DNA of 64,000 bases, taken from the sequence record PQ671645.1; one strand, given 5' to 3'. Position numbers and translations under genes: made by a program. Shown here one piece after another: positions 3,178-47,286 of this stretch. The notes beneath the pieces were generated by a model. It was given only the letters and a program-made list of their open reading frames with translations, had not been told where the DNA came from and searched no databases. Within the stretch, counting starts at the first letter, position 1. Each line of letters opens with the position of its first letter. The stretch is from Escherichia phage DCP548.

Positions 3178-3471
3178 TTATTTACGGAATGAAAGGAATG
3201 CTGGTGCTCTGAATGGAGTATCATCTTTAGAGTATTTAACTAATACGACCATTGGTACCTCTGTTTCTAAATGACCTGTCACTACACCGACAAAAATTTG
3301 ATCAGTGTGCTCAGGGTCACGAAAGTTTTTAAGAGGTTCCATAGCAATATGGAATGCACCTGGGAATACTCGATTCAATTCATCAATCACAGCTTCGTTA
3401 AAAACATCATCCGCTGGGATAGCATCTTCAACTACTAGTTCTTGACCATTAAAGCGAAGCATAGATTTCAT
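3178..3471 (-). CDS. Hypothetical protein downstream of alt
   Basis: Track ORF 3178..3543 trimmed to the internal Met (MKSMLRF) that has a GAGGA Shine-Dalgarno and avoids overlap with alt. Confidence 0.4.
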   Translation of the reverse strand: MKSMLRFNGQELVVEDAIPADDVFNEAVIDELNRVFPGAFHIAMEPLKNFRDPEHTDQIFVGVVTGHLETEVPMVVLVKYSKDDTPFRAPAFLSFRK

Positions 3472-3529
3472 AACGTTTTCCTCATGTTGTTGATGGGATG
3501 ATAGTATCACACATCCATGTGTTTGTAAA

Positions 3530-5617
3530 CTATCCTTGGACAAATTTAAACGGAACTGATTCTAAATCCATTAAAGATGCTAACAATTTCAAACCTTTAG
3601 GTGCACTAGTTTTTTCTACAAATGAGGCAAAAGATACCGGCTCATCTGATTCGATTTCACCTGTCATAGCAACTACCTCGCCTGTTTCCATGAGAACATC
3701 ACCATCATAAATGACAGCTTCATCTAACTGGTCTGAGGACATGACTTCAGCTTGAATAAATTTAAGGTTGGATTCTAAACCTGCACCAGTATCAGATGAC
3801 GCATCTGTAATTTTATTTATCTGCAAGAGAATGCCTCTAGGCAAAATAATTTCTTGCTCATTAGGGTGATTACTCAACTGTCCTGGATAAATCACGTTAA
3901 CTTTATGGGCGCCATCAATAGCCCATCCAACGTTAACACGGATTTGTTCTGGTGCATGCATAGCTGTTCTTACTTGACTAGGAGAAATAGTAACACCTTC
4001 GTCATTATTATCAATGTTAAGCTCTTTGCGAACTTCTTCAGGAGCAAGTCCAAGGGCAACGTTCTCTTTAAACCCGCCGAAAATAATAGGAGCTAGTGAA
4101 GTGGAAACATAGTTTCTGAAGTAGAATACCTTATTTTTAACCATTGCTTCGTAAATAGGCATTCTGATAGACTGAGCTCTATATAACGTTAGTCCTTCAG
4201 GTAAACGGTCTCCATTTAAAAACGCCGAATCAAGACCATCAATAGCGCGTTTAACTTCATCTTCATCTGCAACATCGTAAAAATCTGGTTTATAACGACC
4301 TAACAACATATTATTGATATCGATATACGCAGAAGAGGCATATTCACGAATAGCTCGTTTTTCAGCAACAGAGTATTGTTTAGGGTCCCGATTCATTGTT
4401 ATATTAAAGGTGCCTCTAGCCGATTCCCGTGCATAAGTATACATCACATTAGACAAGAACGCTGATTTACGTTGTTTCCAAGTTCTTTCAGATACTTCAG
4501 CTAAAACGTCGTCGGGCAGTTGGAAATTATCACGTCTAAAATCTTCAAACCATTCGTCTTTAATAGAGTCTGCAATTTCATTTGCAGCTTCAACAAAAGC
4601 AGCTAATGCTTTAACAGATGTTGTTTTTTCAGTTTTAATTTTCTTAGCAAACTTTTCTAAAGTTGGCTTAATAACACTACCATAAGAAACTTCATCGGCA
4701 AATTTAAAGGATTCATCAATACGATTATAAATCTTATTTTCGATATCAGCAACTAAAGTGCCTTTTGCTGTGGACGATGCTTGGGCTAGTACGATTTCAT
4801 ATGCTTCAGGAAGTAATTCGGCTGTAGCCGGGCCACTAACTTCTTTAGCAGAATTTTCGTATTTCTGGAATAACTCACCTTCTTGACGGTCAGCTTCTAA
4901 AGATTGACTTGCTGCAATAGCACGACGAGAAATTTTGGTGCGAGCAATAACAGGTTTATCTTTACGTTTTTCTTCTACCGCGGCAATAGAACCGGCGATA
5001 GCCGTTTCTTTGGTGACCTTTTCACCGGTCTTTTTACTCACATAAACTTCGCCAACATCAGAATCTACTTTCGTGTACAACTCTGTGTTAATGTTAGGGA
5101 TGCCTTTAATATCCTCAATGTTGGCATTTTTACGAACCATCATCACATAGGTGTGTTTACCTGTGAATTGATACATTGCCGACAATACTTTAAAACGACC
5201 ACCGGTTTTAGTAGAAACTAAACGAGCAAGAAGAGTTTGAAGCTGCTGTCCACGTCCTTTCAATTTCTTGGTAGGGAACCGGAACAGAACTGCATCCATA
5301 CGAAGAGCTTTAACCTGTTCATATACTGTATTGAAAATGGTGTTGATTGCATCAATAGGAGCAGGACCAAGGCCATTTTTCAATTCAGCGAGATTACCCT
5401 TTTCAGACAGACTCATAATAACAACATGAGCGTATTTGTCGCCAAGTTTAACTTGTTTTACAGCATCGCCTTCAGAAAGGTAAGAGAATAAGCGAACTAC
5501 GATGTTTGTATCGATATCACCAATTTTCCAGACTTGTGGAACTTTAGCTTTAGGGTTCAAATTGACGACAGGAAGACTGCCTTCAGATTCAAACACTTCA
5601 TTTAATTGTTCAGACAT
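3530..5617 (-). CDS. alt: Alt ADP-ribosyltransferase (virion-packaged; modifies host RNA polymerase)
   Basis: 695 aa (T4 Alt about 682 aa); directly downstream of DNA ligase as in T4; C-terminal region carries YRAQ and Ser-rich ART-like motifs; TATAAAT-like late promoter upstream. Confidence 0.8.
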   Translation of the reverse strand: MSEQLNEVFESEGSLPVVNLNPKAKVPQVWKIGDIDTNIVVRLFSYLSEGDAVKQVKLGDKYAHVVIMSLSEKGNLAELKNGLGPAPIDAINTIFNTVYEQVKALRMDAVLFRFPTKKLKGRGQQLQTLLARLVSTKTGGRFKVLSAMYQFTGKHTYVMMVRKNANIEDIKGIPNINTELYTKVDSDVGEVYVSKKTGEKVTKETAIAGSIAAVEEKRKDKPVIARTKISRRAIAASQSLEADRQEGELFQKYENSAKEVSGPATAELLPEAYEIVLAQASSTAKGTLVADIENKIYNRIDESFKFADEVSYGSVIKPTLEKFAKKIKTEKTTSVKALAAFVEAANEIADSIKDEWFEDFRRDNFQLPDDVLAEVSERTWKQRKSAFLSNVMYTYARESARGTFNITMNRDPKQYSVAEKRAIREYASSAYIDINNMLLGRYKPDFYDVADEDEVKRAIDGLDSAFLNGDRLPEGLTLYRAQSIRMPIYEAMVKNKVFYFRNYVSTSLAPIIFGGFKENVALGLAPEEVRKELNIDNNDEGVTISPSQVRTAMHAPEQIRVNVGWAIDGAHKVNVIYPGQLSNHPNEQEIILPRGILLQINKITDASSDTGAGLESNLKFIQAEVMSSDQLDEAVIYDGDVLMETGEVVAMTGEIESDEPVSFASFVEKTSAPKGLKLLASLMDLESVPFKFVQG

Positions 5618-41720: not shown

Positions 41721-42353
41721 TCACAATACGTTAGTTACAAGGGTAATGATTTCTTTGGACACATTAGGGAAGTCAATGTAAGTATATTTACCACCGATCT
41801 TAATCTTAACATCATTTTCAAGAGAAGTAAACAGCTTTGATTCAGTTTCTGACATGTTGTATGCAAAGATTCTAAGAGAACCATCTCGACGAATTTCGAT
41901 CTGACGAATACCTAGAACTCGTTTTGCAAATCGAACTTCCAAGTTACTACGGTTTTCACCGATTTCTTTAACTTCAACTTTATCTTTAATATTTTCAAAA
42001 ACAAAGTTTGCTAGTTCATGCATTTCAGGAGTAACTCCACGTGCTTTTCTGGTGTTACGTTTCTGAAGAAGTTCTGGAGCATTTTCTTGGGCAAAAAGGT
42101 CTGCAGCTTTTTGGATAATATCCATTGCTTCGCCTGTTGCTATAAGTCCATCACCAGATTTTTCGACTAAACCTTTCTTAATCAATACACCAATGTTAGA
42201 GTTAACAACCGATGCATTGTATTCCGCTTCCAGAGCTTCACGGACATTGGCAGCAGTGGTGAAGTTGTTCTTAATGATATAAACCATTATTGCAGCAGTT
42301 TTTTCATTCAGAGCGTTTTCGGAAGCTTTGATGATGTAAGCAACTTTAGACAT
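41721..42353 (-). CDS. motA: MotA middle-transcription activator
   Basis: 210 aa (T4 MotA 211 aa); strong N-terminal match (MSKVAYIIKAS...VVNSNIGVLIKKGLVEKSGDGLI). Confidence 0.9.
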   Translation of the reverse strand: MSKVAYIIKASENALNEKTAAIMVYIIKNNFTTAANVREALEAEYNASVVNSNIGVLIKKGLVEKSGDGLIATGEAMDIIQKAADLFAQENAPELLQKRNTRKARGVTPEMHELANFVFENIKDKVEVKEIGENRSNLEVRFAKRVLGIRQIEIRRDGSLRIFAYNMSETESKLFTSLENDVKIKIGGKYTYIDFPNVSKEIITLVTNVL

Positions 42354-42392
42354 TTTATTTCTCCAATTTGGTTGTTTTGTTTTGATAGGTCT

Positions 42393-42421
42393 ATAATATC
42401 ATGTTTGAAGCACATGTAAAC
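42393..42421 (-). promoter_or_regulatory. T4-type early promoter for motA
   Basis: -35 GTTTAC (plus 42416-42421), 17-bp spacer, -10 TATTAT; preceded on the transcript by the terminator hairpin at 42451-42466. Confidence 0.5.
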
Positions 42422-42446
42422 TGTTTTGTGAGAAAAAAAAATGCAC

Positions 42447-42466
42447 AAAAGGGAGCTTCGGCTCCC
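42447..42466 (-). terminator. Intrinsic terminator after gene 52
   Basis: gggagc-ttcg-gctccc (42451-42466); on the minus transcript it is followed by UUUUGUGCAUUUUUUUUU. Confidence 0.5.
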
Positions 42467-42542
42467 TAATCATGTTTGTCCAACCAATACAGCCAAATCA
42501 CTAGTACAGCTATTGCACCGAGAAATCCTAAGGCTATGGCAC

Positions 42543-43868
42543 TCAAAGTGCCTCCAAGTCTTTAGTGTACTCTGTCACAACATCAGTAGACTTCCAATAC
42601 TCATTTTCTTCTTTCTTAGCTTTAGCTTCTTCCGCTAGTTTACGTGCTTCGTCAGAAGTGATATGGAAGATGTTAAGGCCTACCAGTTTATCGACATGTT
42701 CTTTATACATTTCGATTTGTGCTAGCTCTTCAGTCAAAGCTTTACGAGTCTTGCCCTGAATCACAATTTCGCCACTGATAACTTTTTTGATGAAGTGTGC
42801 CTTAGCAAAAGCCAGTTTAAATGCTTTTTCAGATTCAAGGATTTTGTTGTCAATACGTTTCTGAACGTAAGTCTTACGGACTTCAACAAAATCTTTGATT
42901 AAGTCCACTACATTATCATAGACTGCTAATTTACCCTTTTCATTAATCACTGTGATGTTTTGTGAACGACGTTCGATGAGACTAAAATCTTTCATGATTT
43001 TTTCATGACGTAGCTCTTCATCATCAGGAAGCGAGTACTCTTTACGGAACTTCACCTTAAACCCAAAGCCGTGTTCACCGCAATCATCTTCCCATGAGAT
43101 TAGACCTTTGTCTTCCAACGGGTCAAGAACCTTACTCACATACGTTTCACGGTCAAATTTATATGGGATTTCAGTTATCTGCATTTGAGTGCGAGATGTG
43201 AACTTATATGTTCCGTGAATCTCATAACGCCCATCAACTTCATGTACTTCACCACGGAATTCTGGGAATTCAACTTTTGGCTTAGTAACATTTTTACCTT
43301 GAAGAGCTTGTAATACAGCCTTTTTGACTGATTTAAAACTATGAGGCAGAATATTTGTTGCGTAACCGGTTGCAATACCAGAGACACCATTCAAAAGAAC
43401 TGTCGGAATAATAGGAAGATAGAATTTTGGTGGAATGTGTTCTTTATCTTCATGAGCTGGAGCATATTCAGTATCTTTATATACGTTATAGAAATTTTTA
43501 CTTACACGAGCAAAAATATAACGAGATGCTGCAGCTTTTTGGACTGTTCTAGAACCAAAGTTGCCTTGGCCATCTAACAGTGGATAGTTGTTGTTCCATG
43601 TGTTAGCCATCAATGCACCTGCATCTTGTGCAGAGATTTCACCATGGTGATAACCTAAATCTGCAACACCGCCTGCAATTGACGCAAGTTTATGAAATTT
43701 TTCTTTATTACCACGAGCCAAATCTAACGCACGATGAACCACAAAACGTTGAACCGGCTTAAATCCATCAATCATGTTTGGGATTGCACGGTTTTCAACG
43801 GTGTACATCGCATATGCTAAGGCTTCGTTATCAATAATACTTTTTAGATTACGAGAATTCAATTGCAT
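42543..43868 (-). CDS. 52: DNA topoisomerase II medium subunit gp52 (GyrA-like)
   Basis: 441 aa (T4 gp52 442 aa); GyrA-type features (AIPNMIDGFKPVQR) with an active-site Tyr region. Confidence 0.9.
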   Translation of the reverse strand: MQLNSRNLKSIIDNEALAYAMYTVENRAIPNMIDGFKPVQRFVVHRALDLARGNKEKFHKLASIAGGVADLGYHHGEISAQDAGALMANTWNNNYPLLDGQGNFGSRTVQKAAASRYIFARVSKNFYNVYKDTEYAPAHEDKEHIPPKFYLPIIPTVLLNGVSGIATGYATNILPHSFKSVKKAVLQALQGKNVTKPKVEFPEFRGEVHEVDGRYEIHGTYKFTSRTQMQITEIPYKFDRETYVSKVLDPLEDKGLISWEDDCGEHGFGFKVKFRKEYSLPDDEELRHEKIMKDFSLIERRSQNITVINEKGKLAVYDNVVDLIKDFVEVRKTYVQKRIDNKILESEKAFKLAFAKAHFIKKVISGEIVIQGKTRKALTEELAQIEMYKEHVDKLVGLNIFHITSDEARKLAEEAKAKKEENEYWKSTDVVTEYTKDLEAL

Positions 43869-43872
43869 ATTT

Positions 43873-44013
43873 TCACCATATTAATGAACGAATAACCATT
43901 ATAACATCTGAAATGAAAAGCACTACTTGGATTAGCCCAAACATCACACCGTAGTACAGAACCGTAAGCAAAAACAAGAGCCCGAAGGCTCCTGCTAAGA
44001 TTTTCTTAATCAT
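43873..44013 (-). CDS. Small hydrophobic membrane protein (46 aa), not in the ORF track
   Basis: Hand translation MIKKILAGAFGLLFLLTVLYYGVMFGLIQVVLFISDVIMVIRSLIW; its ATG overlaps the stop of the next small ORF (ATGA). Confidence 0.35.
   Translation of the reverse strand: MIKKILAGAFGLLFLLTVLYYGVMFGLIQVVLFISDVIMVIRSLIW
43898..43922 (-). promoter_or_regulatory. Candidate MotA-dependent middle promoter for gene 52
   Basis: Minus strand reads TGCTTTTCA (MotA-box-like), 12 nt, then TATAAT, ending about 30 nt upstream of the gene 52 ATG. Confidence 0.35.
43974..43991 (-). terminator. CGAA-loop hairpin inside the small membrane ORF 43873..44013
   Basis: gagcc-cgaa-ggctc (43978-43991) with a U-rich tail on the minus transcript; embedded in coding sequence, so function is uncertain. 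Confidence 0.25.
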
Positions 44014-44159
44014 TGCTCGCCTTTTAATACGTTAAGAAGAGCTAAGACCGCTAAGGTACCTTGTGACACAGCCTGTTGAAATACTGTTGTTTCGCCTGTA
44101 ACTAAAGTGTTAACGAATAAAAACGACCAACACAGCAATGCAATAATCCATGCTACCAT
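44010..44159 (-). CDS. Small hydrophobic membrane protein (49 aa), not in the ORF track
   Basis: Hand translation MVAWIIALLCWSFLFVNTLVTGETTVFQQAVSQGTLAVLALLNVLKGEQ; lies between ndd and 52, where T4 carries small membrane-peptide genes. Confidence 0.35.
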   Translation of the reverse strand: MVAWIIALLCWSFLFVNTLVTGETTVFQQAVSQGTLAVLALLNVLKGEQ

Positions 44160-44211
44160 TTTAATTACCTCAAAAATAAATTAAAGGCCTAACTTAATAG
44201 GCCCGTATAAA

Positions 44212-44658
44212 TTAGTAACTCTGCAGAACGAATTTGAAATTATCTGCCAGAAGACGGTTCATTTCAGTGAGTGTTTGATATTCTGATGTATGATTGCGAG
44301 TGAATGCCAGAGCCAATTGTCCTTTACCATAACCAGTAGTCAGGGGTTTCATGTTCTTAGCTGCAACAAAGATTACATCATATTCAATATTGTTAGTGCC
44401 CATAGTACGGGCTAGTTGCGAACGGCCTTGACGAATGTGAGAAAGAATTGCATCCAACCCTTGTTTAGAACGTTGACGTCCTACAAAGAATCGTGCTGCT
44501 ACTTGTCGCCAGTCAGATGAACCTTTAACAAAGAAGTAAAAACCTTCACGAGAACGAAACTCTTTAGAAACTTCAGAACCGTATTCGCCATTACGAACTA
44601 CTGCAACAACTTCACCGCCAACTGCCAGAAGGTCTTTACGAGTTAAATATTTGGACAT
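44212..44658 (-). CDS. ndd: Nucleoid disruption protein (Ndd), positional call
   Basis: 148 aa (T4 Ndd about 151 aa); position between denB and 52; basic protein. Confidence 0.5.
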
Positions 44659-44702
44659 GCTAATTTCCTCAATTGATTAATGTTTTTGTAATCCATGAGA
44701 GC

Positions 44703-44732
44703 ATTATACTCTGCTCTCAAGAGTTTGTACAA
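44703..44732 (-). promoter_or_regulatory. T4-type early promoter in a stem-loop cassette upstream of ndd
   Basis: -35 TTGTAC variant (plus 44727-44732), 18-bp spacer, -10 TATAAT; inverted repeat gagagca/tgctctc; near-identical to 16541-16575. Confidence 0.45.
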
Positions 44733-44734
44733 TT

Positions 44735-44935
44735 TTATTCGGCTATATCAGAACGTTCAAAAAGCTCTTCAATAGTTAAACATTCAGTGTCATCTTCAAT
44801 AAAGAATCGAGTCCAACACGTTGGGGCGATACAGTTATGAGTTTGTCCGGCGATAGAAGCTACACGAATAAGCTGCTGACCATTATTCAGAACAAATTTT
44901 TCACCAATTTCAACATCTTTAAAAAGCTTAGCCAT
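44735..44935 (-). CDS. Hypothetical small protein
   Basis: 66-aa ORF with early promoter cassette 44964-44993 upstream. Confidence 0.4.
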   Translation of the reverse strand: MAKLFKDVEIGEKFVLNNGQQLIRVASIAGQTHNCIAPTCWTRFFIEDDTECLTIEELFERSDIAE

Positions 44936-44963
44936 TTTGTGTTCCTCATGTTTCAGTAGGACT

Positions 44964-44993
44964 ACTATACCATAATCCTACCGTGATGTAAAC
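44964..44993 (-). promoter_or_regulatory. T4-type early promoter in a stem-loop cassette upstream of ORF 44735..44935
   Basis: -35 GTTTAC (plus 44988-44993), 18-bp spacer, -10 TATAGT; inverted repeat gtagga/tcctac brackets the -10. Confidence 0.45.
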
Positions 44994-44995
44994 AA

Positions 44996-45106
44996 TTAAA
45001 TTACATTAAAATATGTTAAAGCCAACCATGTTCCAGTGAACGAACATGCGATGTAAAACCCCGTATCACAAATTGTTCTTAGTACAATAAGAAGTGCATT
45101 TTTCAT
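44996..45106 (-). CDS. Small hydrophobic peptide (36 aa), not in the ORF track
   Basis: Hand translation MKNALLIVLRTICDTGFYIACSFTGTWLALTYFNVI; its ATG overlaps the stop of the upstream small ORF (ATGA). Confidence 0.3.
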   Translation of the reverse strand: MKNALLIVLRTICDTGFYIACSFTGTWLALTYFNVI

Positions 45107-45189
45107 AAGTACCTCAATACAATTGAAAATATTATACAAATCATAGGGATACTAAGCAACCATATTCCGATCCACATTTTAGAGCTCAT
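45103..45189 (-). CDS. Small hydrophobic peptide (28 aa), not in the ORF track
   Basis: Hand translation MSSKMWIGIWLLSIPMICIIFSIVLRYL; its ATG overlaps the stop of ORF 45186..45449 (ATGA). Confidence 0.3.
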   Translation of the reverse strand: MSSKMWIGIWLLSIPMICIIFSIVLRYL

Positions 45190-45449
45190 ATCTCAACTTC
45201 CGCGAGTTCCATATATCCTTTGTTGATAACCTCTTTAAGGTCTTTAGAAAGAATAACACTAAAATGGTCGTTCATATGTCCATTAACCAGACGAGTTATT
45301 TCGGCTTCAGATGACATATAAGGCACGTCTGAGTCCCAATGAGATAGACCCAAATGGGTATAAATCATCCCTTCGTCATCTGCAGTGTTGTACATTGAAA
45401 CAAATTCGCCTGTTACTTTATGTTTTGCGTAGAAAAATTTAAATTTCAT
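45186..45449 (-). CDS. Hypothetical protein
   Basis: 87-aa ORF with early promoter cassette 45476-45505 upstream. Confidence 0.45.
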   Translation of the reverse strand: MKFKFFYAKHKVTGEFVSMYNTADDEGMIYTHLGLSHWDSDVPYMSSEAEITRLVNGHMNDHFSVILSKDLKEVINKGYMELAEVEI

Positions 45450-45475
45450 GATGTTATCCTCTTTTAGATAGGACT

Positions 45476-45505
45476 ACTATATCATAGTCCTACTTAGTTG
45501 TAAAC
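45476..45505 (-). promoter_or_regulatory. T4-type early promoter in a stem-loop cassette upstream of ORF 45186..45449
   Basis: -35 GTTTAC (plus 45500-45505), 18-bp spacer, -10 TATAGT; inverted repeat taggact/agtccta (45469-45492). Confidence 0.45.
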
Positions 45506-45517
45506 ACTTTTATGAAA

Positions 45518-46075
45518 TTAAAGTTGAAGATACCACCCGTTGTAGTTGCTCTTGCGGACGATTTTCTTTAGGTCTTCATGGTCTCCCACGAACTTTATAG
45601 AATAAGAGAAGACGTCAGGTGAGGTTTCTTTGACATCTAATATAATAATGCAATCTGCGACTCGATGGTTCAAGAAGGGCCCTATGTTGATTCCGTTGCC
45701 GCCTGGATAATCACCACTGTATCCTGTGGTAACAGAAATCCATTTAGAATCCATCTGATGTGTCTTGACTTCTACACGAATTCCACAATATTTGGGATGG
45801 GCCAACACGTCCCATGCATACGTGTACGGGTCTTCTACATCTTCAATACCTTTATTAACATATCCGTCTAGCCAATTTGCTACTACATACTCTGCAAAGA
45901 CTGCAACCTTACAACGTCGAACTACATCTTCTTTGTTTTGGTCTGGATTTTGGCTCAACGAATATCGAGCAGTGTCAGCAATCTTCACCTTCATTTCACT
46001 AGTCAAAAACTCATTCGACAGGATAAATGTCGGAAGACTCTTCAGTCTCAACAATCCCAAGTTCGTCTTTACCAT
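45518..46075 (-). CDS. denB: Endonuclease IV-like (DenB), positional call
   Basis: Track ORF 45518..46138 trimmed to Met MVKTNLG (start codon 46073-46075), giving 185 aa, the size of T4 DenB; start choice is uncertain. Confidence 0.4.
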   Translation of the reverse strand: MVKTNLGLLRLKSLPTFILSNEFLTSEMKVKIADTARYSLSQNPDQNKEDVVRRCKVAVFAEYVVANWLDGYVNKGIEDVEDPYTYAWDVLAHPKYCGIRVEVKTHQMDSKWISVTTGYSGDYPGGNGINIGPFLNHRVADCIIILDVKETSPDVFSYSIKFVGDHEDLKKIVRKSNYNGWYLQL

Positions 46076-46349
46076 AGATACCTCTGATGTGTAGTTCGCC
46101 AAAATAAATGCGGTCACCTTCTTCAAGATATTCAGCATCTACAGGTGGAATTTCATTAACAACTTCGTCGCATTCTAACCAGCCATAGTGTGCATCACCT
46201 GGGTGTTTTACCAATTTAGCACAATAAACCGATTTACACTTATGATGACCACGAAGATTAGCAATTTTGGATTCTGATACGTCAAATGGATGAATCATAA
46301 TTACCCCTAAAGAAAAAGGGGACCGAAGTCCCCAATTATTATTCTGCAA
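46011..46349 (-). CDS. Hypothetical protein (between rIIB and denB)
   Basis: 112-aa ORF; overlaps the proposed denB start by about 65 nt, so one boundary is probably wrong. Confidence 0.3.
   Translation of the reverse strand: MQNNNWGLRSPFSLGVIMIHPFDVSESKIANLRGHHKCKSVYCAKLVKHPGDAHYGWLECDEVVNEIPPVDAEYLEEGDRIYFGELHIRGIYGKDELGIVETEESSDIYPVE
46313..46333 (-). terminator. Intrinsic terminator after rIIB
   Basis: ggggac-cgaa-gtcccc (46318-46333) followed on the minus transcript by UUUUUCUUU; 6 nt after the rIIB stop. Confidence 0.55.
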
Positions 46350-47286
46350 ATAATTCAGTAACGTCTGAAATTACTTCATAACGACAAGTACGCATCTTAG
46401 CATCGCCATAGTCAACTGGGATGGACACAACATCACGTGGATGAACTTTAACCTTAACAACTTTATCTGAGCTAGAACCAAAGTAACGAATATACGATTT
46501 AGCGCAAACATGTAGACCACGGGAGCAGGTTTGTGTATCATCATCGTTAACACGAGTACGAGGCATTGAAACAACTTTACCTGGTGAGTTATCAAATGTA
46601 CCGCTATAGCAATCTAAATAATCTTTACGAACTACTTTCCACGCGTAGAAATGCCCATCTTCAGTGATTTCAATATCATTTGCAACCAAGAAGTCGAATA
46701 AACGTTGTACAGCTTTTTCGCTTGGGTTTTCTAACAGGTTTTCAAGGAACGGTAGATAGAATTTAAAGTCTTCGCCTTTTTCCATAGAATCAATAATACG
46801 ATTAACCAGACCAGAACGAATCTCTATACCTTGATAAAATAAACTACCACCTTCAATAACAACATTACCGTCAACAAACTTACTAATAGCTTTCTTGATG
46901 TTAATAAGTTCGACAGCTTTACTAAGGTTTCCTGCGACCAGATTAGCTTTAATTTCTTCAAAATTTGCATGACTTGATGGAGTCGCATTGTATGCTACGC
47001 GTCCTTCAATAATTGAAATAAATTTAGATGACGCGTTCCATACGATTTCAGGACGATGTCCGCCGATAATAGGTTCATCATTTTCTGGAACTTCTTCGAT
47101 TACATAAGAGGCATCGTTTGCTTCAGGGACAACGCCTTCTGCTTTAAAATTCTTAACAATCTTACGAAGAGTATCTGTTGAAATGTCGAAGTAATCGGCA
47201 ATTTCTTTACGAGTCCATTTGCCTGATTCAACCAGGCCGTAAGCTTCTAACTGTTCTTCTTGGGATAAGCATTTGATATTGTACAT
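46339..47286 (-). CDS. rIIB: rIIB membrane-associated protein
   Basis: 315 aa (T4 rIIB 312 aa); near-identical N-terminus MYNIKCL and C-terminal half (DGNVVIEGGSLFYQ...VNDDDTQTCSRGLHVC...VHPRDVVSIP). Confidence 0.95.
   Translation of the reverse strand: MYNIKCLSQEEQLEAYGLVESGKWTRKEIADYFDISTDTLRKIVKNFKAEGVVPEANDASYVIEEVPENDEPIIGGHRPEIVWNASSKFISIIEGRVAYNATPSSHANFEEIKANLVAGNLSKAVELINIKKAISKFVDGNVVIEGGSLFYQGIEIRSGLVNRIIDSMEKGEDFKFYLPFLENLLENPSEKAVQRLFDFLVANDIEITEDGHFYAWKVVRKDYLDCYSGTFDNSPGKVVSMPRTRVNDDDTQTCSRGLHVCAKSYIRYFGSSSDKVVKVKVHPRDVVSIPVDYGDAKMRTCRYEVISDVTELFAE

Follow-up and report, generated by a model that had tools for sequence, protein, structure and literature searches.

Gene layout of the region

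The four small open reading frames (ORFs) considered here, of 46, 49, 36 and 28 aa, are all located on the minus strand of the window, that is, the whole stretch of 64,000 nucleotides from Escherichia phage DCP548 (PQ671645.1) that was analysed. The window belongs to a Mosigvirus, a T4-like coliphage; the region is 99.5% identical to that of the Mosigvirus phage ST0 and is matched by 164 related phage records. The sequence-only reading that drew attention to these ORFs did not mention the strand; all four were found at exactly the positions that it proposed, but a fifth coupled small hydrophobic ORF, at 42466..42546, had been overlooked. The T4 gene order is kept (denB, ndd.6, ndd.5 and others, then ndd.1, ndd, stp, ac, 52.1, 52 and motA.1). 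Three of the four ORFs are the counterparts of T4 ac, 52.1 and ndd.6, genes that have had their names for decades; the fourth, of 36 aa, is a Mosigvirus-only orphan that is already present in public records. One T4 member of that gene order, stp, has no homologue in the window. The features of the region are, in window coordinates:

42450-42467, strong terminator hairpin after the 26-aa ORF
42466..42546, minus strand, coupled small hydrophobic ORF of 26 aa, whose TTG start overlaps the gene 52 stop (TTTGA)
42543..43868, minus strand, gene 52, topoisomerase II medium subunit, directly preceded by the ac-52.1 pair
43873..44013, minus strand, gp52.1 orthologue, 46 aa (DUF7396; PF24129, phrog_3595)
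43973..43996, minus strand, ten-pair hairpin with UUCG loop and U-run, inside 52.1 codons 6-14 (z −2.5)
44010..44159, minus strand, Ac (acridine-sensitivity protein) orthologue, 49 aa (phrog_2501)
44185..44204, minus strand, terminator-like hairpin in the 52-nt ndd-ac gap, at the T4 stp position (z −1.4)
44212-44658, ndd, with its own promoter-like site
44735-44935, ndd.1, with its own promoter-like site
44957..45010, minus strand, second PeSL-like cassette (repeat copy 1), with promoter TTTACA-17-TATAGT at 44992-44964 that would drive ndd.1
44996..45106, minus strand, 36-aa orphan ORF (phrog_18561, E 1.4e-29), at the T4 ndd.5 position
45103..45189, minus strand, Ndd.6 orthologue, 28-aa predicted single-transmembrane peptide (phrog_8851, E 3.7e-11)
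45186..45449, minus strand, 87-aa soluble ORF (phrog_2390), first gene of a three-gene coupled unit
45469..45522, minus strand, PeSL-like cassette (repeat copy 2), upstream of the 87-aa ORF

The four ORFs had been taken for a single chain. They form instead two separate pairs, ~840 nt apart, with ndd and ndd.1 and their promoter-like sites in between. It had further been proposed that their location corresponds to the stretch from which T4 makes its small membrane peptides, and this is borne out by the orthologues of 52.1, ac and ndd.6. Identity, synteny, coupling signals and selection were established in this analysis, while early transcription, dispensability and the acridine phenotype are taken from the T4 literature.

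Junctions and translational coupling

The plus strand reads TCAT at three junctions, in each of which the stop of one ORF and the start of the next share an ATGA in the direction of the genes. These are 44010-44013, from the 49-aa to the 46-aa ORF, 45103-45106, from the 28-aa to the 36-aa ORF, and 45186-45189, from the 87-aa to the 28-aa ORF. The claim that each start overlaps the preceding stop as ATGA thus holds for three of the four ORFs but not for the 49-aa one, whose start (44159) overlaps nothing and is preceded by a 52-nt spacer with a hairpin and by GAGG 9 nt upstream. Ribosome-binding motifs, GAGG or GGAGG, are located 5-9 nt upstream of the starts; GAGG lies 7 nt before the start of the 36-aa ORF, and GGAGG precedes the TTG start of the 26-aa ORF, which is annotated in phage HX01 as D299_gp206 and occupies the motA.1 position of T4 with no similarity to motA.1. 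When ORFs of at least 25 aa were counted, the minus strand held 13 ATGA junctions, compared with 3.1 ± 1.9 in Markov simulations, and the plus strand held 3. The abundance of ATGA is a genome-wide style of gene packing and no peculiarity of these four ORFs.

The junction between ndd.6 and the next ORF is ATGA in Mosigvirus and in T4, and ac meets 52.1 in ATGA here (4 nt), in TAATG in the majority of Mosigvirus phages and, in T4, by an overlap of 8 nt, so that coupling, by ATGA or by an equivalent overlap, is kept in related phages. Ribosomes that end on one ORF would reinitiate on the next at such short overlaps, and reinitiation of this kind would allow very short genes to be expressed without free-standing initiation sites.

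Hydropathy and predicted structure

All four ORFs had been predicted to encode hydrophobic membrane peptides. By the best 19-residue Kyte-Doolittle window, for which the usual threshold is 1.6, this holds for the 46-aa ORF (2.52), for the 28-aa ORF (2.62) and, in its N-terminal helix only, for the 49-aa ORF (2.19), but not for the 36-aa ORF, which reaches 1.56. Hydropathy and the helices predicted by AlphaFold2 are compatible with small membrane peptides; AlphaFold2 was run on single sequences, and its models give helices only and are uninformative on membrane insertion or partners. The products would be small helical peptides that enter the host inner membrane early in infection, and we infer their membrane targets, as well as the topoisomerase link considered below.

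The Ac orthologue

Family assignments were run both ways, with window proteins and T4 proteins each compared with the profiles. The phrog_2501 profile recognizes the 49-aa ORF with E 2.9e-22 and T4 Ac (51 aa, "acridine resistance protein") with E 2.2e-25, and the two proteins have the family, the slot and the size in common. The gene is found downstream of ndd and immediately upstream of 52.1, which it overlaps, and the exact window sequence is present on 22 contigs, deposited as "acridine resistance" protein. The Q-G of T4 G38 is conserved. Within Mosigvirus ac is under purifying selection (omega 0.28, P 0.014). The AlphaFold2 model (pLDDT 78.5) consists of helices 2-21 and 25-46, a predicted helical hairpin; T4 Ac has the same shape of two hydrophobic helices with a short polar turn (bioRxiv 10.1101/2025.06.30.662393).

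[quoted passage not shown] Acridine sensitivity is the sole experimentally grounded function among the four ORFs. With no more than 32% identity between the Ac of the window and that of T4, it is by inference that this phenotype is carried over to the Mosigvirus protein. That Ac acts on AcrAB-TolC efflux, as one preprint proposes from T4, has about an even chance of being right.

E. coli AcrZ (49 aa, inner membrane), a small partner of AcrB, offers a functional analogy only, in that a membrane peptide of ~50 aa is proposed to act at AcrAB-TolC; AcrZ is a single helix that supports efflux, and Ac, predicted to be a two-helix hairpin, is proposed to block it. Relatedness of the two was rejected, since BLASTP gave no alignment at E ≤ 100.

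The position that stp takes upstream of ac in T4 is occupied here by the terminator-like hairpin, and the record of phage NBG1 annotates a terminator at this place. No TGCTT box of a MotA middle promoter was seen by eye before ac in minus-strand 44330-44150. A partial MotA-type box, TGCTTAC, off consensus, is located inside 52.1, directly after the hairpin of that gene.

Ndd.6, the 87-aa ORF and the promoter/stem-loop cassettes

The 28-aa ORF is identical to T4 Ndd.6 in 16 of 28 residues (57%; alignment score 88, full length), and phrog_8851 is the family of both. The two peptides share length, position and the ATGA junction to the next ORF, and the sequence match is accompanied by the single hydrophobic helix of 25-29 aa downstream of denB. 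Matches to ndd.6 were obtained by tblastn in 758 phage records, and purifying selection on the gene is indicated by a pN/pS of 0.41 across genera and an omega of 0.15 within the genus. Ndd.6 would be a conserved single-pass peptide. The database label "outer membrane protein" for Ndd.6 is an old prediction, not a result. In contrast to T4, ndd.6 of the window is coupled to an upstream 87-aa ORF that T4 lacks; this ORF is present in the T4 relatives L015-L019 (with 87 aa in L016) and has an omega of 0.03 within Mosigvirus.

The unit is preceded by a cassette in which an early-type promoter (TTTACA-17-TATAGT, 45504-45476) is combined with a stem-loop (45469-45492) over the -10 element. A second copy follows the unit, its promoter beginning 4 nt after the stop of the 36-aa ORF, and the two copies form a 54-nt direct repeat (D1) of 80% identity that flanks a 512-nt cassette. 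This architecture, termed PeSL (promoter-early stem-loop), was published for the variable regions of T4-type phages (PMC2839356; PMC4122927), and the class definition was taken from these reports (Arbiol et al., 2010; Comeau et al., 2014). The copies found here share with PeSLs the strong sigma-70-type early promoter with a stem-loop over the -10, the intergenic placement from the stop of a small ORF to the next ribosome-binding site, the location in a variable region and the direct repeats around a small-ORF cassette, and they differ in the -10 element, which is TATAGT here and TAYWAT in the published T4/PST consensus. Mosigvirus, T4 and the relatives of T4 do not all carry the same set of cassette genes.

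The 36-aa orphan: gene or spacer

The 36-aa ORF belongs to phrog_18561 and T4 Ndd.5 (32 aa) to phrog_5011, a different family. Ndd.5 is the positional equivalent only: the starts of both ORFs fall within the last part of ndd.6, at a conserved ...GAGGT..TTATGAAAA junction, and nucleotide homology with T4 extends through ndd.6 up to TTATGAAAA and ends there. Comparison of the two peptides gave a score of 27, against 29.6 ± 3.9 for shuffled queries, with no similarity in any frame, and descent of the 36-aa ORF from ndd.5 or another T4 ndd gene by frameshift or divergence was likewise discarded, as the scores were no better than shuffled. Matches to the ORF were found in 152 phage records, all of Mosigvirus type, and over 100 phage contigs in the public databases list it as a hypothetical protein. 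The orphan would be genus-specific, and recombination at the conserved junction would have put it in the place of ndd.5.

One may ask if this ORF has a product at all. It could be a non-functional spacer, left open by chance after the recombination of cassettes, with a frame that is read only because the ndd.6 junction (GAGG and ATGA) delivers ribosomes to it. Its omega of 0.59 (P 0.29) is indistinguishable from neutral, with variable sites distributed 6/2/4 by codon position, as compared to 0.03-0.11 for the 87-aa ORF, ndd.1 and ndd in the same genomes. A frameshifted copy occurs in PECP20, the sub-threshold hydropathy is equalled by 17% of background ORFs in the window, and an exhaustive search of 1.84 billion representatives returned the ORF's own cluster only. 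AlphaFold2 gives a single helix (residues 2-35), the hydrophobic stretch of which is interrupted by R10 and D14. However, the frame is open at ≥90% identity in 151 of the 152 records, the only other length variant seen being an in-frame deletion of one codon in p000y, and the in-frame ratio (0.62) is below the off-frame ones (0.95 and 1.19). Moreover, T4 carries a different ORF, ndd.5, coupled identically at the same slot, which suggests that the slot serves a product. The spacer is the somewhat unlikely explanation, and the 36-aa ORF is, on balance, probably translated.

gp52.1: peptide or leader

The 46-aa ORF scores 79.3 bits with PF24129 (gathering cutoff 27), which covers residues 1-46 of 46, and its product is 72% identical to T4 gp52.1, of the same length. 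Its start overlaps the stop of ac and its stop is located, likewise as in T4, 4 nt before the start of gene 52; at many enterobacterial T4-like loci a member of this family, of 44-46 aa and W-terminated, precedes gene 52 by 1-11 nt. The C-terminal half is near-invariant between the window and T4, whereas the N-terminal hydrophobic stretch differs (AGAFGLLFLL here, GYSLALAALL in T4), and with it the RNA hairpin that is encoded. Purifying selection on 52.1 is specific to its frame, with a pN/pS of 0.24 as compared to 0.84 and 1.04 for the two alternative frames; within Mosigvirus alone the omega of 0.43 (P 0.13) is below significance.

The hairpins give some ground to the view that 52.1 is mainly a regulatory leader for gene 52, in which translation coupled to ac controls a 5' hairpin (a terminator, an attenuator or an RNA-stabilising element) and delivers ribosomes to gene 52, the peptide being secondary. 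They occur at codons ~6-18 in two unrelated versions at the same place (z −2.5 for the window version, −3.4 for that of T4), the one in the window being followed by a U-run and flagged as terminator-like. Across 11 distinct T4-type sequences none of the 143 pair cells loses its pairing, and one double change is compensatory; only 9 of 500 shuffles came up to this level. Codons 1-5 are near-invariant at the nucleotide level, and the distance from the 52.1 stop to the gene 52 start is 4-8 nt in Mosigvirus, T4 and the related loci examined. Nevertheless, the 27 C-terminal codons (20-46) are under strong constraint at the peptide level (pN/pS 0.13 at pS 0.48), and the motif LF(I/L)..V with the terminal W is kept down to 33% identity, conservation that is not expected of a mere leader. 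Furthermore, the U-run is interrupted in close relatives such as HX01, the structure was picked after the sequence had been viewed, the covariation evidence is thin, and an Rfam scan of 42300-46500 at E ≤ 1 gave no match. The leader is therefore considered unlikely, and gp52.1 would be a functional peptide and not merely a leader. That it acts together with the adjacent topoisomerase subunit is a doubtful proposal; gp52 and gp39 may fractionate with membranes, and a search of the literature on T4 topoisomerase and the membrane found no report.

Early accessory genes or exclusion factors

The four ORFs are very probably ordinary, already catalogued early accessory genes, at home in the variable region that would extend from rIIB/denB to topoisomerase gene 52 in T4-like coliphages. 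In the proposed organization, an early promoter in the upstream PeSL cassette would transcribe a first minus-strand unit of coupled ORFs (the 87-aa ORF, ndd.6 and the 36-aa orphan), the second copy would drive ndd.1, and ndd would follow from its own promoter. After the hairpin, ac, 52.1, gene 52 and the 26-aa ORF would form a second coupled unit, closed by the terminator. The T4 counterparts are early-transcribed and dispensable, as stated in the T4 literature: their transcripts were classed "early", with the proteins undetected by LC-MS (PMC9697503, supplement file 4), and the T4 sa-delta-9 deletion, from 52.1 through denB, produces phage at ~50% of the wild-type rate (PMC6071114). For ndd.1-ndd.6, 52.1 and motA.1 the Kutter review and one omics supplement were all that a literature search yielded, and a search on T4 ribosome profiling and small proteins found nothing on these genes.

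It had been suggested that the peptides serve in superinfection exclusion or modulate a toxin, a reading that may be widened to host abortive-infection systems. Such a role would suit membrane peptides that are small and made early, T4 Imm and Sp being small membrane proteins. In the slot directly ahead of 52.1 and gene 52, taken by Ac here, different genera carry several unrelated hydrophobic ORF families, two of them of 53-54 aa, a pattern that is compatible with an arms race. In addition, T4 Stp, encoded in the same interval, triggers the PrrC nuclease (T4 record note). Yet there was no PHROG, Pfam or other match to families of this kind even at E ≤ 1, and stp is absent from the window: in six frames the best Stp-like score was 35, with a self score of 143. 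Ac has a different documented phenotype, and T4 that lacks the whole interval is viable on laboratory strains, the review section on this deletion making no mention of an exclusion phenotype (PMC6071114). A role in exclusion or toxin modulation is thus very improbable, and accessory genes remain the preferred reading.

Two bolder readings may be set beside it, that the slot is a rapidly exchanging one for small membrane peptides with two helices that disable host envelope transporters, or that the 52.1 hairpins couple gene 52 expression to peptide translation. Taken jointly they are decidedly unlikely; if either were true, these "hypothetical" mini-genes would become a defined host-takeover module.

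Annotation of the small ORFs

The ORFs were described as unannotated, which is correct in so far as three of the four are missing from the ST0 record. All four, however, are coding sequences in the RefSeq record of HX01 and in that of phage 55; PHROGs and Pfam include the ORFs as well, and GenBank accessions exist for their exact sequences. With three T4 orthologues and a fourth ORF already deposited, the value as a discovery is small. T4-like phages repeatedly swap tiny membrane peptides in this part of the genome. The practical value lies in annotation, as gene callers omit such ORFs unevenly: ST0 is annotated without three of the four, and NBG1 and p000y without 52.1.

Gene layout and existing annotation

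Across 43800-45500 the sequence shares 99.5% identity with Escherichia phage ST0 and 98.4% with HX01. It has matches in 164 phage records, nearly all of them from Mosigvirus phages (Straboviridae, Tevenvirinae) of Escherichia or Shigella. All genes of the stretch are carried by the minus strand. The four small ORFs that the sequence-only reading described as one unannotated, translationally coupled chain are all present where it placed them, on the minus strand.

Small ORFs and their T4 counterparts
43873-44013, minus: 46-aa ORF, 52.1; 72% identical to T4 gp52.1; phrog_3595; Pfam DUF7396, 79.3 bits (cutoff 27)
44010-44159, minus: 49-aa ORF, ac; 32% identical to T4 Ac; phrog_2501
44996-45106, minus: 36-aa ORF; no T4 counterpart; phrog_18561
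45103-45189, minus: 28-aa ORF, ndd.6; 57% identical to T4 Ndd.6; phrog_8851
45186-45449, minus: 87-aa ORF

In the reverse check, T4 gp52.1, Ac and Ndd.6 match the same three PHROGs profiles as the window ORFs. The T4 reference record gives, on the same strand and in the same order, rIIB, denB.1, denB, ndd.6, ndd.5, ndd.4, ndd.3, ndd.2a, ndd.2, ndd.1, ndd, stp, ac, 52.1, 52 and motA.1. No homologue of ndd.2, ndd.2a, ndd.4, ndd.5 or motA.1 was found anywhere in the 64-kb window.

The ORFs are not unannotated, since all four are CDSs in RefSeq HX01, where the 49-aa ORF is labelled 'Ac acridine resistance protein', and in phage 55; the ST0 annotation omits three of them. The exact 36-aa, 28-aa and 49-aa sequences have accession numbers in public databases, the 36-aa one on 116 contigs. 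The original observation is partly confirmed and its interpretation partly supported, and the finding is already known. Annotation of the region is erratic: NBG1 and p000y lack 52.1, the 28-aa ORF is mostly left out, ndd is labelled 'naphthalene 1,2-dioxygenase' in SCS57, and Ac 'nuclear disruption protein' in vB_Eco_F31.

Coupling and conservation

The ATGA overlap attributed to each start holds for three ORFs: plus-strand TCAT, the coding-strand ATGA, joins 49-aa to 46-aa ORF (44010-44013), 28-aa to 36-aa ORF (45103-45106) and 87-aa to 28-aa ORF (45186-45189). It does not hold for the 49-aa ORF, whose start overlaps no ORF; it follows a 52-nt gap with a hairpin (44204-44185), and GAGG lies 9 nt upstream of its ATG. 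The ORFs therefore form two pairs and not a single chain; the pairs are separated by ndd (148 aa) and ndd.1 (66 aa), both of which have a promoter-like site of their own. The gap between ndd and ac (44160-44211), the place of stp in T4, holds the hairpin only, stp being absent from the whole 64-kb window. ATGA junctions are this genome's general packing style (13 on the minus strand vs 3.1 +/- 1.9 simulated).

The coupling by short overlaps is conserved in relatives. ATGA joins ndd.6 to the next ORF in Mosigvirus and in T4. Between ac and 52.1, the window, HX01 and ST0 have ATGA and most other Mosigvirus phages TAATG, whereas in T4 the two genes overlap by 8 nt. Many enterobacterial T4-like loci have a 52.1-family ORF (44-46 aa, terminal W) 1-11 nt before gene 52, with identity dropping to 33-36%; in more distant loci unrelated hydrophobic ORFs of 52-61 aa take this place, and many of the most distant ones (metagenome contigs, gp52 41-44% identical) have no 52.1-like small hydrophobic ORF, gene 52 directly following the large topoisomerase subunit. 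Homologues of Ac occur in 282 phage records and those of Ndd.6 in 758. Other T4-like genera have unrelated hydrophobic ORFs of 53-54 aa just ahead of 52.1 (comparison loci L008, L010-L013, L020 and L021, about 3440-4160). These are of the types 'MVILVFIELIMAIV...' and 'MQPIYTFIWLV...', and their ends overlap the start of 52.1 by some 5-8 nt (in loci checked 8 nt, as in T4 ac); L010 and L011 carry an Ac-like ORF together with the 53-54 aa type, plus a duplicated stp fragment.

Coding evidence and membrane character

Synonymous and non-synonymous changes were counted, as pN/pS across genera and as omega within Mosigvirus.

Substitution counts
52.1: pN/pS 0.24 (other frames 0.84 and 1.04; codons 20-46, 0.13); omega 0.43, P 0.13
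ndd.6: pN/pS 0.41; omega 0.15, P 0.045
ac: omega 0.28, P 0.014
36-aa ORF: omega 0.59, P 0.29; variable sites 6/2/4 by codon position
87-aa ORF, ndd.1, ndd: omega 0.03-0.11

By these counts 52.1, ndd.6 and ac are clearly genes, and the 36-aa ORF is a plausible, unproven one; it is frameshifted in one relative (PECP20) and has an in-frame codon deletion in another (p000y). As to the predicted membrane peptides, the top 19-residue hydropathy windows reach 2.52 for 52.1, 2.62 for ndd.6, 2.19 for Ac (N-terminal helix) and 1.56, under the 1.6 threshold, for the 36-aa ORF. For Ac, single-sequence AlphaFold2 predicts two helices (2-21 and 25-46, pLDDT 78.5) that form a hairpin, and for the 36-aa ORF one long helix.

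Stable RNA hairpins lie in codons ~6-18 of 52.1, in the window (43973-43996, minus, z -2.5) and in the T4 locus L004 (about 3297-3333, minus, z -3.4), as two unrelated sequence versions. Among 11 different T4-type sequences no pair is lost, and the single compensatory double change also alters two amino acids. Ahead of gene 52, these hairpins could terminate or attenuate transcription or stabilise the RNA; covariation support is weak.

The 36-aa ORF and its cassette

The 36-aa ORF occurs in 152 records, all Mosigvirus-type (151 at >=90% identity; tblastn, 50,697 phage records), and HMMER, run exhaustively against 1.84 billion cluster representatives, matches it to its own cluster only. It belongs to a different family (phrog_18561) from T4 Ndd.5 (phrog_5011), with which it shares the ribosome-binding site, the ATGA junction and the first two codons. 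The nucleotide sequence stays homologous to T4 across ndd.6 as far as ...GAGGT..TTATGAAAA, where homology ends, and the ORF body resembles the T4 ndd region in no frame (score 27 vs 29.6 +/- 3.9 for shuffled queries), so that all but the shared start region has been replaced relative to T4. The 36-aa ORF is an orphan confined to this genus, and its function is uncertain.

Three early-type promoter matches (10/12 positions) occupy minus-strand intergenic gaps, at 45504-45476, 44992-44964 and 44731-44703. The first two lie in a 54-nt direct repeat (45469-45522 and 44957-45010, 80% identical) with a stem-loop that spans the -10 element, and the copies bracket a 512-nt cassette of the 87-aa ORF, ndd.6 and the 36-aa ORF. 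This is the architecture of the published PeSL (promoter-early stem-loop), an early promoter and stem-loop around small ORFs; such cassettes flank orphan genes in T4-type variable regions and mediate shuffling (PMC2839356, PMC4122927), which fits the gene replacement at the 36-aa ORF and the gene presence/absence differences among T4, its relatives and Mosigvirus.

Function

The four ORFs belong to the known early accessory genes and specify small peptides of the inner membrane, which would be made by coupled translation from short early transcription units. A dual-omics study of T4 puts the transcripts of 52.1, ac, stp, ndd.2-ndd.6 and motA.1 in the 'early' class and did not detect the proteins (PMC9697503, supplement). 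T4 carrying the deletion sa-delta-9, and so lacking 52.1, ac, stp, ndd, ndd.1-ndd.6 and denB, is still produced at about half the rate of the wild type, but the stimulation of phosphatidylglycerol synthesis that follows infection is lost (PMC6071114).

Deletion of T4 ac, or G38R, gives acriflavine resistance, and E. coli expressing Ac is more sensitive to acriflavine and ampicillin; blockage of AcrAB-TolC by Ac was proposed in the same 2025 preprint (bioRxiv 10.1101/2025.06.30.662393) and repeated as an assumption in a 2026 PNAS paper. The G38-equivalent glycine is kept in the window Ac, and Ac has no similarity to AcrZ. Efflux inhibition is a plausible, unproven mechanism. gp52.1 is a constrained peptide, and its invariable position beside gene 52 suggests a possible role together with the topoisomerase; Ndd.6 is a conserved, uncharacterised peptide. 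The roles first suggested, superinfection exclusion or toxin modulation, find no support, and the window has no counterpart of Stp, which in T4 triggers the host PrrC nuclease (T4 record).

Neighbouring ORFs

A fifth coupled hydrophobic ORF (26 aa, 42466-42546, minus), overlooked at first, is annotated in HX01 as D299_gp206. It starts with a TTG that overlaps the stop codon of gene 52 (TTTGA), and GGAGG lies just upstream; it sits at the T4 motA.1 position, with no similarity to motA.1. A strong hairpin and U-run after it, a terminator at 42450-42467, closes the ac-52.1-52 unit.

The denB ORF (45518-46138, minus) is open for 206 aa, the T4-equivalent start being its residue 22, and some records have 158 aa only. 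A TTG-start ORF of 112 aa (46011-46349, minus; 95 aa in the annotation of relatives) overlaps the long version. T4 ndd.3 (26 aa) and ndd.2a (40 aa; L004 4433-4629) correspond to one 65-aa ORF in the close T4 relatives L015-L019 (about 2409-2608); here the T4 reference seems to be split or to carry a frameshift.
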